From the NCBI GenBank assembly GCA_024686575.1, contig GCA_024686575.1_4863.1: DNA of 64,000 nucleotides; one strand, given 5' to 3'. This DNA comes from a phage. The notes under the pieces are model-generated. The model searched no databases and was not told where the DNA came from. It worked only from the letters and a program-made list of their open reading frames with translations. Shown here piece after piece: positions 1,629 to 59,882 of this stretch (positions are counted from its first letter, which is position 1; each line of letters starts with the position of its first letter). A program made the translations under genes and the position numbers.

Positions 1629-1643
1629 AGATAATATCTATCT
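1629..1643 (-). promoter_or_regulatory. conserved 15-mer AGATAATATCTATCT (promoter-like), copy 1
   Basis: Exact 15-mer, 40 nt upstream of the ATG at 1589. Confidence 0.55.
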
Positions 1644-1694
1644 CAGATTACTTTGGGCACGGGTTCATACCCAGTGCCCGTAACGTAAAAAACT

Positions 1695-2393
1695 TTAGGG
1701 TATTAGGCGTTGGGCTATTTCGCGGAGTTGGTCGCGGGTTAAATCAGCCAACTTCTGGTCGCCGAAGCCCAACTTCAGACCCAGCTCGTACCCAGCTTGC
1801 GGATACGTGTTCGTGTTTGCTACTGAGAGGAGTGCATCGGCTATCTTTACCATCGTTAACTCGAGAGACGCATACGGGGCGGGGATCGGCTGATTCACGA
1901 TTTGGTAATTATAACGCACTGCGGCGTTATCGTAGTCAAACTCCATCCTTCTGCCGAGAACGTTAAACGACTCCGCAGAATAACTACCAAGTGGGTGATT
2001 GGCTTTTTCCCACAAATCTTTCCGTTCAGTAAACCCAGTCGCGAAGTTCTGACGTATGGTGTCGAATATTTGCGTTGCCTGGCTAGGGTGTATATTTTTC
2101 AGCTCATTGTAGTCGTAGTCGGCGATGGAATATAGAGTGAACACAACACCGTTTATATTTAACTGCGGATAATCCATCCGCAGACTGTCATCACCTTGTA
2201 AATGAAGTTCCCACATCCTTACCCACTGCAATATCGCGCTTACCGCATCGTGACTGAGATAAAAATTAGTAGGTTCTTCAGGATTTTCACGGAAGGGAAC
2301 AGAGCATTCCGATACAAAAAAGCCGGCTGCCATAAATCCTCTGCCGTCGAACATAGGCGCAACTAATCTTGATTTTTCTAAATTGATTACCAT
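1695..2393 (-). CDS. hypothetical protein
   Basis: 232-aa ORF with ATG start preceded by AAGGAG at 6-nt spacing; 15-mer motif 41 nt upstream. Confidence 0.6.
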   Translation of the reverse strand: MVINLEKSRLVAPMFDGRGFMAAGFFVSECSVPFRENPEEPTNFYLSHDAVSAILQWVRMWELHLQGDDSLRMDYPQLNINGVVFTLYSIADYDYNELKNIHPSQATQIFDTIRQNFATGFTERKDLWEKANHPLGSYSAESFNVLGRRMEFDYDNAAVRYNYQIVNQPIPAPYASLELTMVKIADALLSVANTNTYPQAGYELGLKLGFGDQKLADLTRDQLREIAQRLIP

Positions 2394-2433
2394 TACTGTC
2401 TCCTTAAGTTAAAACCGAACGACTCTCTCCCTA

Positions 2434-2448
2434 AGATAATATCTATCT
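2434..2448 (-). promoter_or_regulatory. conserved 15-mer AGATAATATCTATCT, copy 2
   Basis: Exact 15-mer, 41 nt upstream of the start at 2393, just downstream of the terminator for the 766-aa gene. Confidence 0.55.
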
Positions 2449-46121: not shown

Positions 46122-46136
46122 AGATAATATCTATCT
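46122..46136 (-). promoter_or_regulatory. conserved 15-mer AGATAATATCTATCT, copy 3
   Basis: Exact 15-mer 31 nt upstream of the RNAP beta-like gene start (46091), in the divergent region shared with the + gene at 46158. Confidence 0.55.
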
Positions 46137-46157: not shown

Positions 46158-46481
46158 ATGCTAGATAAATTTGCTACCTTATCCGAAATAATACCTTCGC
46201 CTGATTCGACCAAGTATAAGGTGTTGCATGACTATACAGACTTCCTTCGCAAACACCCAGATACTACAGAAGAAGTTGTTGACCCAAAATATGCCTACCC
46301 AGAGGTACACAGTTTCTACGCGTACTGTCGTCTCAAACAGTACGATAATAGTATTATTTATCCGATGATGTTAATGAACGGAATTTCTACTCCGTTCGAT
46401 TTCACGCCAGAGATAAGAACCTTATTGGTTCCTAGTGTCGGTGTGGTAAGTAACATCTTATCGACTATCGTAGAATCTTGA
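46158..46481 (+). CDS. hypothetical protein
   Basis: 107-aa ORF, ATG with AAGGAG RBS; bidirectional terminator downstream. Confidence 0.5.
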   Translation: MLDKFATLSEIIPSPDSTKYKVLHDYTDFLRKHPDTTEEVVDPKYAYPEVHSFYAYCRLKQYDNSIIYPMMLMNGISTPFDFTPEIRTLLVPSVGVVSNILSTIVES

Positions 46482-46512
46482 AAAAAAGAAGGGACGCCCA
46501 GTCCCTTCTTTC
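46479..46512. terminator. bidirectional rho-independent terminator
   Basis: Hairpin GAAGGGAC-GCCCA-GTCCCTTC flanked by an A-run and a T-rich tract, between convergent genes. Confidence 0.65.
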
Positions 46513-46518
46513 TAACGC

Positions 46519-47886
46519 TTAACGTAAATTAGCTGATGAGAATGGTAGGTTGCCTAAACTGCTGCTACTTCCGCCACCTAAACCACCCAGACCACCTAAC
46601 ACGTCACTACTCCCTCCTAAGAGGTTGGTGCTACCGCCGCCCAACTGCGTGCTACCCCCCAAGAGATTATTACTACTTCCCAGCAAACCAGAACCCAGAC
46701 CACTTTCTTTCGTCACCGCATTACCACGCAGCGCTTCACCGAGAGACAGTTCTTTAATTGTCCCTTTCGGTAAATGGCCGTTGTTCTCACGCAGCGCTTC
46801 CTGAATCTTCGGTGCTAACGCATTGAAGCTATTAGCCGAAGACGCCTGTTGCGCTTTCTTCGCACGGAAATAGTTTACCGGATCATTGAGATCAAGATTT
46901 TCCTGCGGAGCTTGTTGAGAAGCTAAAGCAACGACCGGCTTTGTGCCGGCAGGTGTACGCCCGATACGGAAATCTGTTGCGGTGGTGTCTGTTGCCTGAT
47001 CGTTACGTGGGCCGGTATTATACGGCAGAGTTTGGATAACGTTATCATAAACGCTCATGTTATCCAGTTGGCCAATCCATTCTTCTTCTAACGGACGCAG
47101 TGGAGTGTGGTCACGCAGACCACGAACCACTTGATTGTAGTTGGTCACGTATTGTGCCCAACCGCGTGCCAAAGAACCGAAGTACGGACGCGGATCGTTA
47201 GAACCAGTAACCGAAGGATACCAACCAAACACTGCAGTTAGCAGGTTAAAGATAATGACCTTATCCTGCTTACGCTGGAGCTTGGCACCGAAGAATGTTG
47301 CCGTACCATCCAGTGACTCTTCTTCAAACATGTGTTTGTAGTTCGCCACGCGGATATATTTGATACCCTCAATGGTCATATCGCTGGAGATGAAGATACT
47401 GGTGATCTTTGTCTTTTTATCTTCTTCCAGCAAACCGTAAACATAGTTCTTCACCGCTTGCCAGCTCTGAACCAGTTTCTTATCCATCGTCGGATCTTTC
47501 AGGTCAGCACAAACCACATCGCTTAAAAACTTCTTGTAAGCTGCCAGACGGATATTCTTTCCTTCGGCTGCTGTTTCCAAAATAGCATCGATTAGCTCGA
47601 AGCTTTTCAGGAAGAGGTTCGCGTTGATGGCTTTCTTCAGGAAGCGAATCGTTCCAGATTCGCCAGCCAGTACCGATTCACACAGTGGGTGGAACGCATG
47701 ACACTCACTACCTTCATCGTCTTCCAACCCACGCTTAATCATCGCTGCAGTTGGAAGCACCAAGCGGCGCTTCACTTTGTTGTAGGTGAACATTGCTGGA
47801 TGACCATCATCGATAGTCAGCATGTCACCTTCGAATCCGTATCCGAGAGAGGTCAGAAACGAACGGTAGAATTCAATCAATTTCAT
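46519..47886 (-). CDS. hypothetical protein with Gly/Ser/Leu-rich C-terminal tail
   Basis: 455 aa; C-terminal 60 aa is a low-complexity repeat LLGGSTQLGGGSTNLLGGSSDVLGGLGGLGGGSSSS. Confidence 0.55.
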   Translation of the reverse strand: MKLIEFYRSFLTSLGYGFEGDMLTIDDGHPAMFTYNKVKRRLVLPTAAMIKRGLEDDEGSECHAFHPLCESVLAGESGTIRFLKKAINANLFLKSFELIDAILETAAEGKNIRLAAYKKFLSDVVCADLKDPTMDKKLVQSWQAVKNYVYGLLEEDKKTKITSIFISSDMTIEGIKYIRVANYKHMFEEESLDGTATFFGAKLQRKQDKVIIFNLLTAVFGWYPSVTGSNDPRPYFGSLARGWAQYVTNYNQVVRGLRDHTPLRPLEEEWIGQLDNMSVYDNVIQTLPYNTGPRNDQATDTTATDFRIGRTPAGTKPVVALASQQAPQENLDLNDPVNYFRAKKAQQASSANSFNALAPKIQEALRENNGHLPKGTIKELSLGEALRGNAVTKESGLGSGLLGSSNNLLGGSTQLGGGSTNLLGGSSDVLGGLGGLGGGSSSSLGNLPFSSANLR

Positions 47887-47898
47887 GGTTAATAATCC

Positions 47899-49599
47899 TT
47901 AATCAATGAGACCGTTGCCGAGTCCGTTTCCGCCTATACCGCCTAAGCCACCACCCAGGTCAAGACCTCCAAGAGGATCTAAGCCACCTGTGTTAGTTGG
48001 AATGTTAGATAGCATTCGACCCCGGCCTTGGCCTTTCTCGAATTCTGTATAACCTTCTTCCACGGCTTTCAGCAGCGTTGCAGTGTTCTGTGCCAGCTCA
48101 CCAACGTATTTGAGATCGGTGGTGTTGCCGGTATGGAGACGGAATTGCATAAACGACGCGTAGGTGTAATATTCCAGCGGTTCGTCGTCGACACGGATTT
48201 CAATACGAGTAACGGTCCCCAACAATGCGGTGACCAGCATGTGACAGCGAATATGGTTATGTTTAGTAACCTGAACCATCGCTTCTTTCATGTTCTGCAA
48301 GAAACGACGACCTAATGCAGCAGGTAACTGATGATGTGTGATGCTGCTGACTGAGTTAGGAATAACTTCCAACGTAGGCTCTATCATGATATCCGTGTTA
48401 CGGTTATCAAAGACAAAGCTCACTTCGCCAATCAGGTTACGTGACATAATCGGCCCGATAGACATAGCCAGATCATACGCAACTAGACTACCCTGAGTAG
48501 AAAAGCCGTTACGTCCAATCCAGTGGTCGGTTTGGTTAACCAGCCCTGCACCCAACCCACGGCGACTTGCCAGCGCCAGCGATTCACGGATACATTCATC
48601 CAACCGCATTGGGTTGACAATCGCATTACGCAAATCAGCCAAACGGAACGTCGCCTTACTGGTTGCTTTCCAACCGCCAGATACATCAGACATCCCGTTC
48701 TGGAGTGCTTGACGCATCGCAGCAATCAGTTCGTGGTTGCTGTAGTTACGGATAACACCACGCTGCTTCAATTCAGATTCAACGCCGATGGAGTTATTAC
48801 CTGCAAAGAAGCTTTCCACGCTACCGAGTTCGGTATCTACCCCAGAGCTTGCCAGATACGCATTACTGATTGCAGATACGTAGTTTTCCGGACGCTGGAG
48901 TTGGGATACCATCAACTGTGGTGCAGAGCTACTGGTTGCGGATAGCACAGAGTCGCTCGTTGGAACGAACTTCTCACCGCTATTCATTTCAATACGTTTT
49001 ACCATATCCGCTGCTTTCGCGATCGAAATGATATCTACCGTACTTTCTGTTTGACCTTCAACAGACAGCGCTTTCGATAAAACGTAGTTATCCAGTAGAC
49101 GGAATGAGTCTGGGTTCAATGTTTTGCCGCCCAGGGCATCGTGTGTATACGTTGCCTGTAAGCCGTAGATGTCGTTAATGTACAACACCATATCGTCCGG
49201 CAGCAGGCTACCCAGGCTGGTTTCTGCCTGACTGGTATAACCGGAGACGATGTATTGCGTTTCCTGAGTGCGTGTTGCATTCAGAGGTTTAGCAATAAAC
49301 ACCGCCACGAAGTTAAAGATACCGGTATCACGTGATTCCCATTGGAACTGTACAGGACGATTGTCATCATCGGACACGTTGATGAATGGACGCTCAAAAC
49401 CGTTCTGGGTGCCATCGAAGCCCACGATGGCAGATAATGCTTCTTGATACTGCTGTGTTCCCACAGCTTTTTCCCCGCCCAGTTCAACCGCTGCTGCTAA
49501 GTCATCCAGTGCACCCGTCGATGCGTTAAAGCCGATGCGGCGACGAACTTGCTCTGGAACATCGTAGACCGGATACATCAGTAGATTTACAAGCTGCAT
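47899..49599 (-). CDS. hypothetical protein with Gly/Leu-rich C-terminal tail
   Basis: 566 aa; C-terminus GGLDPLGGLDLGGGLGGIGGNGLGNGLID. Confidence 0.55.
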   Translation of the reverse strand: MQLVNLLMYPVYDVPEQVRRRIGFNASTGALDDLAAAVELGGEKAVGTQQYQEALSAIVGFDGTQNGFERPFINVSDDDNRPVQFQWESRDTGIFNFVAVFIAKPLNATRTQETQYIVSGYTSQAETSLGSLLPDDMVLYINDIYGLQATYTHDALGGKTLNPDSFRLLDNYVLSKALSVEGQTESTVDIISIAKAADMVKRIEMNSGEKFVPTSDSVLSATSSSAPQLMVSQLQRPENYVSAISNAYLASSGVDTELGSVESFFAGNNSIGVESELKQRGVIRNYSNHELIAAMRQALQNGMSDVSGGWKATSKATFRLADLRNAIVNPMRLDECIRESLALASRRGLGAGLVNQTDHWIGRNGFSTQGSLVAYDLAMSIGPIMSRNLIGEVSFVFDNRNTDIMIEPTLEVIPNSVSSITHHQLPAALGRRFLQNMKEAMVQVTKHNHIRCHMLVTALLGTVTRIEIRVDDEPLEYYTYASFMQFRLHTGNTTDLKYVGELAQNTATLLKAVEEGYTEFEKGQGRGRMLSNIPTNTGGLDPLGGLDLGGGLGGIGGNGLGNGLID

Positions 49600-49611
49600 T
49601 TTAAATACTCC

Positions 49612-51246
49612 TTAAGAATTAAACCATTCAACTTCTTCTAACTTGCGACGTGCATTCAACACCATAAACTCCGCCAGGCTATTGTGCAGTGACAAGTGAG
49701 GTATATAGTTTGGCTGATCCGTCTCACACTTCAGCAGCGCAGCTGCTTCTGGTGTAGCCCTGAGATGGAACAGATACGGGTTGATGTGATCCTTGTGTAA
49801 CAAGGTCAGTGATTCCCGTGGTGTAGATTGCGGTTCGAGATTACGCGGGTTGCGATACTCCTGAAGATAATATCTATCTAAATCTGCTTTGAGTTCAGAT
49901 CGAATTGGGTCGGCTGCATAACCGGCAGACATCTCAGAACGCACCATATTGCAACTTAACAGTTGCGCAACGTCATACATTCCATAATTGAGATAAGTTG
50001 CCTGTGCTAACGCCATGCCGTAGCGAAACGCTTCTGGTCCACATTCGGTATACGTCTTATAATGCGCGCTACGATGGAGTGCTAATGCGACTAACCATTC
50101 GTGGAGCGTATAGACAGGACCGTCGTGTGTTGCCAGTTGCGAATCAATCAATAACTTAACATCTGCTGGAGCGGCATTATCCAGGCGCATTGTTTTCAAG
50201 AAAGAGCGGTATTCTTTAAATACGTACTCGGTACGGACGTATTCTTTCATCTGGGCAGGAGAACGTGCCTGCACCAAATCCATGGCGTTTATCTTACCCT
50301 TTTCGCCATTGAATATCACACTTTCTGGATGCGCTTTTAACAGCACCGGCTGGTTAGAGATTTTGTTTGCAAAACCTGTTTCAATCTCTTGTTTAACCAG
50401 AAAATACATGCCGGTGACGATATTGTTGTTAACCATGATTTCAACCGGTAATTCACCACCGACTTCACGGACAGCCAACAATTTAATAATAGCATACGCC
50501 AGGATATAATCTTCCATCATATCCGTGCCATAGCCCCGCACAGTAGCCAGTACCGACAAACTGGTGCTGTTCGTACCTTTGTTTGCCAGTTCTTTTTCTA
50601 CCTTTTCCATCACTGTCTGTAGGAACCCACGCAGTTTCGGAATAGCAGGTAAAGACATGACTTCTGTGTCTTGAAGCATCTCCAGACAGTATGTCAGATT
50701 GTACACCATTTTCCGATGTGTTTCGATTGGCAAGTTCTTACCTATCGGGAACGTCCCCATGGTGAGGAACACCGGAATATACGGTTTAATCATCAGGACC
50801 AGTATCAACAACTCGTAATAGTCCGGACGAATGTACGTCATCGCTTCCGGATAATTACTGTTCATTTCATCGTGCGTATCTTCCATGTTCTGCGGAATCC
50901 ACAGCTTATCGATGGGATACAGCTTACGATACACTTCGGCCTTGTGGAACTTCGCAATCGTCTGCACAATCTTCGGCATGTGCTTACGCTGCGTTTCCGT
51001 CGATTCGTTTGCCAGCTCGTCCAGCATCAGATACGCCATGAACAGTTCATCTTGTTCGTCTGGCGTTAAATAATCCCACACGCGTTGTAATTCCATGAAG
51101 AGAATGTTGTCGCGTGCAATCTGTTTACCTTTAACAGTGATGTAGTCGGGTGCGTTGTTATCCTTCCGATAACGTAAGCCAATAAATGAGACCTCTTGAC
51201 CATGATGCTCGATTGTCATCCGGTCTTTAATCTTCGTAATTTTCAT
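49612..51246 (-). CDS. hypothetical protein
   Basis: 544 aa, ATG with GGAG RBS; 15-mer motif 35 nt upstream; a second copy of the motif lies inside the 3' part of this ORF. Confidence 0.55.
   Translation of the reverse strand: MKITKIKDRMTIEHHGQEVSFIGLRYRKDNNAPDYITVKGKQIARDNILFMELQRVWDYLTPDEQDELFMAYLMLDELANESTETQRKHMPKIVQTIAKFHKAEVYRKLYPIDKLWIPQNMEDTHDEMNSNYPEAMTYIRPDYYELLILVLMIKPYIPVFLTMGTFPIGKNLPIETHRKMVYNLTYCLEMLQDTEVMSLPAIPKLRGFLQTVMEKVEKELANKGTNSTSLSVLATVRGYGTDMMEDYILAYAIIKLLAVREVGGELPVEIMVNNNIVTGMYFLVKQEIETGFANKISNQPVLLKAHPESVIFNGEKGKINAMDLVQARSPAQMKEYVRTEYVFKEYRSFLKTMRLDNAAPADVKLLIDSQLATHDGPVYTLHEWLVALALHRSAHYKTYTECGPEAFRYGMALAQATYLNYGMYDVAQLLSCNMVRSEMSAGYAADPIRSELKADLDRYYLQEYRNPRNLEPQSTPRESLTLLHKDHINPYLFHLRATPEAAALLKCETDQPNYIPHLSLHNSLAEFMVLNARRKLEEVEWFNS
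49865..49879 (-). promoter_or_regulatory. conserved 15-mer AGATAATATCTATCT, copy 4 (inside a coding region)
   Basis: Exact 15-mer embedded in the 3' part of CDS 49612..51246, 266 nt upstream of the next gene start (49599). Confidence 0.4.
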
Positions 51247-51280
51247 TATAGTTGAACTCCGCGAATAGTCGATTGCACTG

Positions 51281-51295
51281 AGATAATATCTATCT
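51281..51295 (-). promoter_or_regulatory. conserved 15-mer AGATAATATCTATCT, copy 5
   Basis: Exact 15-mer 35 nt upstream of the start at 51246. Confidence 0.55.
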
Positions 51296-51381
51296 CAATC
51301 TTCTTACAGTGTGTGTTGCAGGACCACGCATAAGCGTTAATAGCCCAAGGTCTCCCTTGGGCGTATTTTTTATTTTGTTTC

Positions 51382-52038
51382 TTAGAGGAATTCGTCGTAA
51401 GAATCAGTGGTTGCTGGAGGTGCAGATTGTTGCTGTTGATAACCGCCGCCGCTGCGCTGACCACCACCCTGGCCACCGCCGTATCCGCCACGACCGAAGC
51501 TACCACCACCTTGCTGGAATTCACGCGGCTTATATTTCTCTTCCAGGTTCTGTAAGAACTTCTCGAAGTTAGTGATAAACGCACGTGCACAGCGCTCAGC
51601 AAGTTCTAAATCAGAAACCTGCTGGCCATCGCGGAAAATACGGAATCCTTTCGGGTAGGAGAAGTAGAACTTCTTCTGGCGGGCACCAACGCCCTGGATT
51701 TCACCGGCAATAGCGATGAACGGTACCAGGTTGTCTTCACGGCCAACAATCAGACTAACGGGCGGTTTGTTGCCGTTTTCGTTAGTAAACTTCAGCATAC
51801 TCTTTTCGCTCTTACGCAGACAATCCTGCAGAGCTTCGATAATGGTACGGCAAACCGTAATCGGTGCAGAGAAATAGAGACCTTCGCCCTTACCAAAAGA
51901 GTAGCTAAACTTCATAGTTTCAACATCACCGTTGAAATCATTCGGTTCAATGTTGAGTTTACGCGTACGGTTTTGCTGATCCGGTTCGGTCTGCGGGTAA
52001 AGCCATTTGTCTTTGAAAATTTCTTGGTTAATCATCAT
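51382..52038 (-). CDS. SSB-like protein (Gly/Gln-rich linker plus acidic C-terminal tip)
   Basis: Internal start MMINQ with AAGGA RBS. C-terminus GGGSFGRGGYGGGQGGGQRSGGGYQQQQSAPPATTDSYDEFL resembles the bacterial SSB Gly/Gln linker and acidic tip (…DFDDDIPF); the N-terminal domain was not recognised. Confidence 0.4.
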   Translation of the reverse strand: MMINQEIFKDKWLYPQTEPDQQNRTRKLNIEPNDFNGDVETMKFSYSFGKGEGLYFSAPITVCRTIIEALQDCLRKSEKSMLKFTNENGNKPPVSLIVGREDNLVPFIAIAGEIQGVGARQKKFYFSYPKGFRIFRDGQQVSDLELAERCARAFITNFEKFLQNLEEKYKPREFQQGGGSFGRGGYGGGQGGGQRSGGGYQQQQSAPPATTDSYDEFL

Positions 52039-52103
52039 TTCATCCTTTTCGGAAAAGCGGTCTAGTGGTTCACACATGATGTCCCACTAACGTAAATTTT
52101 AAC

Positions 52104-59773: not shown

Positions 59774-59788
59774 GAGATAATATCTGCC
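59774..59788 (-). promoter_or_regulatory. 15-mer variant AGATAATATCTGCCT, copy 6
   Basis: Two mismatches; 46 nt upstream of the 617-aa gene start (59728). Confidence 0.45.
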
Positions 59789-59867
59789 TGTAATTTCATG
59801 GAATGCAAGTATGCCGTCGCTTACTTACAAGGCACATAGTCCAGACATTTCTCAGGAACTGTCACAT

Positions 59868-59882
59868 AGATAATATCAATCT
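59868..59882 (-). promoter_or_regulatory. 15-mer variant AGATAATATCAATCT, copy 7
   Basis: Two mismatches; second copy in the same intergenic region, also about 50 nt upstream of the + gene start at 59935. Confidence 0.4.

Follow-up and report, generated by a model that had tools for sequence, protein, structure and literature searches.

A predicted early promoter within the coding sequence of gp30

Analysis of a 64,000-nucleotide (nt) stretch of phage DNA (GenBank assembly GCA_024686575.1, contig GCA_024686575.1_4863.1; hereafter the window) revealed a 15-nt element in the 3' quarter of a protein-coding gene, gp30, which is the core of a predicted early promoter of this lineage, belonging to the class read in phiKZ-type phages by the virion-packaged RNA polymerase (RNAP). 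The window comes from an SPN3US-like Salmonella jumbo phage (Seoulvirus, 240 kb), with positions 47800-51700 showing 99.2-99.3% nucleotide identity, in reverse orientation, to the Salmonella jumbo phages SEGD1 and SPN3US; the SPN3US gene numbering is used throughout. Because the full early-promoter sequence has been kept letter for letter at this position in four genera, the internal copy is very probably the start point of an additional early transcript covering the next two genes, gp31 and gp32. On this comparative evidence we consider it probable that the site is an active promoter in infection, and attach somewhat less confidence to its specific purpose, which might be an extra supply of gp31 and gp32.

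The element occupies positions 49865-49879, where the plus strand reads AGATAATATCTATCT and the minus strand, i.e. the gene strand, reads AGATAGATATTATCT. It matches the 15-mer core exactly and overlaps the gp30 codons L456-D-R-Y-Y-L461: the A at 49879 closes the Leu456 codon (TTA), and is followed by GAT AGA TAT TAT CT(T), encoding D457, R458, Y459, Y460 and L461, and then by Q, E and Y. Both the sequence and the open reading frame (ORF) thus confirm what the initial annotation had pointed out, namely an exact copy of a promoter-like 15-mer in the 3' part of the coding sequence 49612..51246, within the region for DRYYLQEY and 266 nt upstream of the next gene, this distance being that between the low end of the 15-mer and the gp31 ATG at 49599.

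Five exact copies of the 15-mer are present in the window (starting at 1629, 2434, 46122, 49865 and 51281), while simple arithmetic gives a chance expectation of about 1e-4 for an exact 15-mer in 64 kb. With up to three mismatches 12 matches are recovered versus 1.05 expected, a count reached in none of 100 shuffles. All good copies in the window share one orientation, which is sense for the minus-strand genes, and the four exact copies other than the one in gp30 are intergenic, 16-41 nt upstream of minus-strand start codons. Among these are the predicted early promoter of gp30 itself (51281..51295, minus strand), an exact core 35 nt upstream of the ATG scoring 39.0 bits against the profile described below, and that of the gp34/gp35 unit (46122..46136, minus strand), which lies 31 nt upstream of the ATG, scores 34.3 bits and precedes the genes for non-virion RNAP (nvRNAP) subunits beta and beta'.

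The complete 240-kb SPN3US genome was searched for the 15-mer at up to three mismatches and the matches were compared with its annotation. About 22 credible sites were obtained, all sense-oriented; 21 of these are intergenic and situated 16-60 nt upstream of start codons, with the internal gp30 copy being the sole exception. They front gp5, gp9, gp22 (two sites), gp30, gp34, gp55, gp66, gp76 (two sites), gp99 and gp101, and further gp112, gp125, gp135, gp175, gp180, gp198, gp209, gp221 and gp249, and the annotated nvRNAP-type subunit genes of this part of the genome (gp22-23, gp30 and gp34-35) are preceded by sites. The aligned sites define a consensus of about 38 nt, a.TC.AA.AAATTTCAGATAGATATTATCTA.GTGAGA, and a common variant, AGATATATATTACCT, contains TATATTAC, which occurs upstream of gp68 in phiKZ. 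The sites agree with what has been published on early promoters of this kind: bioinformatic prediction for all jumbo phages with RNA polymerase genes of their own has yielded, upstream of the early operons, an AT-rich motif of about 10 nt that is specific to the lineage and centered near -10 (PMC7598289), and mapping of transcripts, where available, identifies it as the early promoter used by the virion RNAP (PMC7598289; for phiKZ, PMC8244752; for 201phi2-1, PMC11512511). Two other identities for the motif were entertained and set aside. A palindromic transcription-factor site was rejected because the variant AGATATATATTACCT is not palindromic and all copies have a single orientation, and a host sigma-70 promoter, while a formal possibility, was rejected in that a consensus scan flags no copy of the motif.

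A 42-column profile constructed from the 21 intergenic SPN3US sites was used to score the window and SPN3US positions 1-50 kb, with the remainder of the SPN3US genome being covered by the above 15-mer search only. The extended match at the internal site (49855..49896, minus strand), which includes an upstream TCAAA element and a downstream AGGAG start region, scores 31.3 bits on this profile, compared to a leave-one-out range of 23.5-47.8 bits for the intergenic sites and a mean of -46 for the background on the two strands of the window. Nothing exceeds 18 bits outside nine sites in 128 kb (both strands), and the residual scores are reverse-strand echoes of real sites. The TCAAA element of the internal copy is found at the consensus spacing and is also conserved in orthologs; its G/A-rich start region, TCTtcAGGAG, is like that of several intergenic copies, and the AAATTTC block just upstream of the core is matched at four of seven positions. 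The only other intragenic candidate with two or fewer mismatches, which lies inside gp251 and has two, scores -12.6 bits and was judged to be a chance match.

Conservation of the internal site across genera

The gp30 genes of five phages from four genera, with 47-84% amino-acid identity, were compared in a codon alignment, to which Phobos was added in a second run; a scan of IMG/VR for wider sampling added few new lineages. By exact-pattern count, the 13-nt core GATAGATATTATC is present at the homologous gp30 position in every examined locus of Seoulvirus, Erskinevirus, Machinavirus and Wellingtonvirus. The site reads GGATAGATATTATCT in STsAS (Seoulvirus; 84% protein identity to the gp30 of the window), GGATAGATATTATCC in both phiEaH2 and Asesino (Erskinevirus; 58%) and in Wellington (Wellingtonvirus; 47%), and AGATAGATATTATCC in pSal-SNUABM-04 (Machinavirus; 50%). 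Nowhere else in the 1.6-kb gene do the five phages share as long an invariant stretch of nucleotides as this core, the runner-up being an 8-nt run at the start codon; upon inclusion of Phobos the longest invariant run is 8 nt (ATATTATC) and the next 5 nt. Of the 153 degenerate columns with an invariant amino acid, only 14% show the same codon throughout the five phages, and nowhere in gp30 except at DRYY do two or more such columns adjoin. Among windows of 12 codons, synonymous identity is greatest at ELKADLDRYYLQ, with a value of 0.81 against a gene mean of 0.45.

These data bear directly on the alternative that the 15-mer is a coding coincidence or a relic, whereby the protein requires D-R-Y-Y-L/P and the nucleotide identity is either inherited or reflects, for example, a translational pause at rare codons (AGA/ATA). 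Such an explanation might draw on the invariance of the D, Y and Y residues, on AGA and ATA being rare codons in enterobacteria, and on the homolog from the Vibrio phage pVp-JHP1101, which retains D-T-Y-P-Y-Y-R at this position without the motif, an observation implying that the peptide predates the promoter. However, synonymous sites are saturated elsewhere in gp30 (same-codon fraction between genera of 0.44-0.50), and yet four codons and their flanking bases are identical here. Pausing at a rare codon would leave GAT, the two TAT codons and the C of the codon after them unconstrained. With the peptide LDRYYL and the codon usage of the phage taken as given, the 15-mer would arise with a probability of 2.3e-4, AGA making up 2.3% of the Arg codons. 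Moreover, coincidence leaves unexplained both the 31-bit match over 42 nt and the amino-acid changes that track the lineages, and is thus an unlikely account of the site.

Some amino-acid replacements in gp30 follow lineage-specific variants of the promoter. In Wellington the bases downstream of the internal core are TATCCtcatgac, with His-Asp replacing Gln-Glu, and are the same as the intergenic TATCCtcatgat that precedes the gene for RNAP beta. The intergenic promoters of the Derbicusviruses Phobos and CR5 have the consensus ATATATGTTATC, and the internal site reads GAC ATA TAT TAT CC and GAA ATA TAT TAT CC, respectively; the Arg to Ile change (AGA to ATA) places a T exactly where their own consensus has a T. 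Within 13.6 kb of the Machinavirus loci no exact core occurs besides the internal copy, indicating that the latter is better kept there than the intergenic promoters. In these loci (L009, L019-L022 and L025), the intragenic pan-clade core is exact at position ~7360 and the intergenic promoters have drifted to GATAGATTTTATC and AATATATATTATC. Being constrained twice, as code and as promoter, the internal copy may be the slowest-evolving promoter.

Synonymous conservation is also raised in one further patch about 100 nt downstream of the internal site, at ~49745-49760 on the minus strand (TTC CAT CTC AGG GC, with the rare Arg codon AGG), which is common to Seoulvirus and Erskinevirus only.

gp30 as a single gene and the architecture of the transcription unit

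The initial annotation had also raised the prospect that the motif marks a mis-predicted gene boundary. In this scenario the 544-residue ORF would represent two fused or wrongly joined genes with an intergenic promoter between them, which would bring the site into line with all the other exact copies being intergenic. The architecture of the protein refutes this. The gp30 ORF is uninterrupted, and profile comparison aligns its residues 2-535 with positions 8-508 of the 509 positions of PHROG 3209 (E-value 3e-159), the same family that is matched end to end by gp68 of KTN4/phiKZ (4e-183). All orthologs continue past the motif, with the ~85 residues C-terminal to it being conserved in every one of them (six genera), including phiKZ gp68. 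No conserved internal start codon was detected downstream of the motif among the gp30 orthologs, and the identity comparisons with STsAS and Asesino displayed no break in similarity at the motif. Hence, the boundary scenario has a negligible probability. Translating searches with gp30 also recovered the KTN4 protein annotated as a putative non-virion RNAP subunit (E-value 6e-7); gp30 is thus a predicted homolog of phiKZ gp68, the fifth nvRNAP subunit, which is known as a physical member of the nvRNAP complex from phiKZ only (cited in bioRxiv 10.1101/2024.03.27.586873).

With respect to the annotation of this gene, both the GenBank and RefSeq records of SPN3US place the gp30 start 27 nt downstream of the ATG common to all orthologs (window 51220-51246; JN641803 23859-23886). 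The N-terminus, MKITKIKDRM, is conserved among the orthologs. The STsAS record carries no annotated coding sequence over its gp30 ortholog (locus L007, 6001-7635).

The genes around gp30 correspond one-to-one, by PHROG family and gene order, with those of phiKZ/KTN4 across the five genes compared (gp29-gp33), and the common order is SbcD / x / gp67 / gp68 / gp69 / gp70 / reverse gene / RNAP beta. Upstream of gp30 is gp29 (51382..52077, minus strand; PHROG 3284), the counterpart of phiKZ gp67 (Imp6). Immediately downstream is gp31 (47899..49599, minus strand; 566 residues), whose ribosome-binding site, AAGGAG, is conserved. It is followed by gp32 (46519..47886, minus strand; 455 residues), the last gene of the presumed unit, by gp33 (46158..46481, plus strand; PHROG 3455), which corresponds to the small reverse gene of phiKZ, and by gp34 and gp35 of the next minus-strand unit, the RNAP beta and beta' subunits (nvRNAP) by annotation. 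Searches with gp31 by tblastn alone recovered no match in Pseudomonas phages. Both gp31 and KTN4 gp69 match PHROG 3141 (7e-157 and 2e-179, respectively), and a profile-profile alignment of gp31 with the gp69 family is collinear over 438 columns but weak (E-value 1e-3, probability 20%). As gp31 also shares the position beside a gp68-like gene, it is a predicted homolog of phiKZ gp69 (Imp1/PicA). Similarly, gp32 and the phiKZ-type gp70 both match PHROG 3520, and gp32 is the predicted homolog of gp70. The functions of gp67 (Imp6), gp68 (nvRNAP) and gp69 (Imp1/PicA, in protein import into the phage nucleus) were described in phiKZ, and the import role of the gp69 family is known from that phage only (bioRxiv 10.1101/2024.03.27.586873).

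Directly after the gp32 stop codon is a terminator-like hairpin followed by a U7 tract (46478..46513, minus strand; -19.3 kcal/mol, z = -3.5), which is likely to be the 3' end of the gp30-gp32 unit. At the other end, a strong hairpin between gp29 and the gp30 promoter (51339..51367, minus strand; -17.4 kcal/mol, z = -6.3) is its likely upstream boundary. The latter is preceded by an A-tract and lacks a U-tract on the minus strand, and a simple scan calls it a plus-strand terminator, though no plus-strand gene ends there. No terminator-like site was detected on the minus strand within gp30 or gp31, nor is there one between the internal site and gp31. The simplest picture is accordingly that of a single 4.8-kb gp30-gp31-gp32 unit with a second, internal start 1.4 kb into it.

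Proposed mechanism and its evaluation

By analogy with the early promoters of phiKZ-type phages, in which the motif is centered at about -10 (PMC7598289), the virion-packaged multisubunit RNAP, injected with the DNA, would bind the AT-rich element centered near -10 and initiate RNA synthesis about 5-8 nt downstream of the 15-mer, at ~49858-49862 on the minus strand (near 49860). The resulting transcript would begin with a leader of ~260 nt derived from the last 85 codons of gp30, which would be untranslated in this RNA, then encode gp31 (Imp1/PicA family) and gp32 (gp70 family), and end at the hairpin and U7 tract after gp32. The internal promoter would add to the read-through from the gp30 promoter 1.4 kb upstream, so that gp31 and gp32 would be made early and at a level higher than, or partly independent of, that of the nvRNAP subunit gp30. 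The same nucleotides would serve both the protein motif D-R-Y-Y-(L/P) and the promoter, and this double constraint would account for the site being frozen across genera. Thus, the proposal made in the initial annotation of an internal transcript for the gene at 47899..49599 is favored by the full consensus match, the synonymous conservation in four genera and the right orientation of the element, whereas the boundary error offered alongside it does not hold.

The same sequence and conservation evidence could also be explained by an element that the virion RNAP or its specificity factor recognizes within the transcribed region and that causes a pause like those near promoters, forms a roadblock or occludes the DNA, and thereby modulates read-through from the gp30 promoter rather than initiating transcription, comparable to the sigma-dependent pausing at -10-like elements in bacteria. 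The location of the site, 1.4 kb into a transcription unit and with no terminator close by, would suit such an element, and the unusually long leader makes a pure role in initiation less tidy. On the other hand, no mechanism of this type is known for jumbo-phage RNAPs, every other copy of the motif lies at a promoter-like place, and the upstream TCAAA and the start region are conserved along with the -10-like core, which fits recognition of a full promoter. We therefore regard a pausing or roadblock element as quite unlikely.

A signal for recombination or replication, i.e. a mosaic junction or a site of R-loop priming at a replication origin, was also considered, given that copies of the promoter flank a polymorphic cassette at 1629-2448. 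Against a mosaic junction, nucleotide identity with STsAS and with Asesino does not change along the site; against an origin, the cumulative GC skew runs monotonically and does not turn near 49.8 kb. The fixed position of the element in all genera examined speaks against both, and this explanation is very improbable.

Several observations nevertheless weigh against the site being an active early promoter. First, most intergenic copies have a stronger A/T-rich block immediately before the 15-mer than the internal copy, whose score falls in the lower third of the distribution of sites. Second, the predicted leader of ~260 nt is far longer than the motif-to-start distances of 16-60 nt of the other copies, and than the leaders of phiKZ, which are typically 31-40 nt (PMC8244752). 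Third, the residues D, Y and Y are themselves conserved in the protein, which accounts for part of the conservation of the site. Fourth, the Derbicusvirus site retains two mismatches in 12 to its own consensus and may be inactive. Fifth, the gp68-like genes of phiKZ/KTN4 and of the Vibrio phage pVp-JHP1101, which have the same gene order, contain no internal copy, showing that this gene cluster can in general do without the element. Finally, a literature search recovered no transcriptome, promoter map, mapped 5' end, in vitro transcription or reporter result for the SPN3US group. Early motifs were reportedly predicted for this phage group by Lavysh et al. in 2016, and the internal copy may already be listed there.

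The phyletic pattern of the copies provides a potential evolutionary scenario for the internal promoter. In phiKZ/KTN4 and pVp-JHP1101 exact early-promoter copies precede the gp68-like gene and the RNAP beta gene. Because these distant relatives have no internal copy and the Vibrio protein has kept the peptide, the internal promoter seems to have been invented within the enterobacterial clade, on the basis of a peptide that was already present. A bolder and rather doubtful extension is that exaptation of a D-x-Y-Y peptide provided this clade with a specific means of uncoupling early synthesis of the Imp1/PicA and gp70 homologs from that of the nvRNAP subunit, and that the long, untranslated, coding-derived leader might add a regulatory layer affecting mRNA timing, stability or localization during the vesicle-to-nucleus transition. 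No conserved RNA structure was found in the ~260-nt leader (RNAalifold -4.4 kcal/mol, with an unfavorable covariation term).

Comparison with known promoter systems

The predicted SPN3US class resembles the early, virion-RNAP promoters of phiKZ, 201phi2-1 and AR9 in being lineage-specific, AT-rich, highly conserved and sense-oriented (PMC7598289; PMC8244752; PMC11512511). With those of phiKZ-type phages it further shares a core related to TATATTAC, a conserved upstream element (matched in part by the gp30 copy), a position before nvRNAP genes and an abundance of a few dozen copies per genome. The phiKZ gp67-gp74 locus (bioRxiv 10.1101/2024.03.27.586873) has early promoters before the gp68-like and RNAP beta genes, as is the case here. 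Nevertheless, the early promoters described to date are intergenic and have leaders of ~30-40 nt, whereas the predicted gp30 copy is inside a coding sequence, ~260 nt from the next start codon, and unlike gp30 of the enterobacterial clade the gp68 gene of phiKZ/KTN4 has no such internal copy. Intragenic promoters per se have a precedent in AR9, in which 13 late promoters lie inside ORFs (PMC5312081). Those are late, nvRNAP-dependent and defined by mapped 5' ends, with their conservation not having been analyzed, while the gp30 copy belongs by sequence to the early class and is conserved across genera. Secondary internal promoters in bacterial and phage operons likewise add transcription of distal genes and uncouple their level from that of proximal genes. 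In contrast to these, the gp30 site is dual-coding, retains the exact consensus at 47-58% protein identity and has as its predicted reader a polymerase delivered by the virion. The element is a further example of an established class of promoters, unusual in its dual-coding position, and does not represent a new kind of system.

Other occurrences of the early-promoter motif

Two further arrangements of the motif were observed at other loci. Two early-promoter copies are found in tandem, 93 nt apart (59775-59789 and 59868-59882), upstream of the gp22-gp23 unit, which encodes RNAP subunits; gp76 likewise has two copies, and paired promoters seem to precede polymerase-subunit operons. Near the start of the window, a 232-residue ORF of unknown function (1695..2393, minus strand; PHROG 15414) is placed between two exact early-promoter copies (window 1629-2448). 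It is present in about 26 Seoulvirus records; SPN3US, EC001, Lh1B, JN03 and SaP7 are without the ORF and have only the two promoter copies, ~198 nt apart, and Proteus phage 7 and MET_P1_082_240 have another insert of like length. This region has the appearance of a polymorphic gene cassette with promoter repeats at either end, and recalls the promoter-bounded cassettes of T4-type phages.

Implications

The comparisons presented above yield an exact prediction of a start site that can be used in work on transcription in SPN3US or the Erwinia jumbo phages, and imply that promoter scans confined to intergenic regions will miss real sites. The gp30 site would also furnish a natural example of DNA that is at once protein code and promoter, and that has not changed between genera in which the proteins share only about half of their residues (47-58%). 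If the site is active, the early supply of components of the phage-nucleus import machinery, gp31 and gp32, would be controlled apart from that of the polymerase subunit encoded just upstream.

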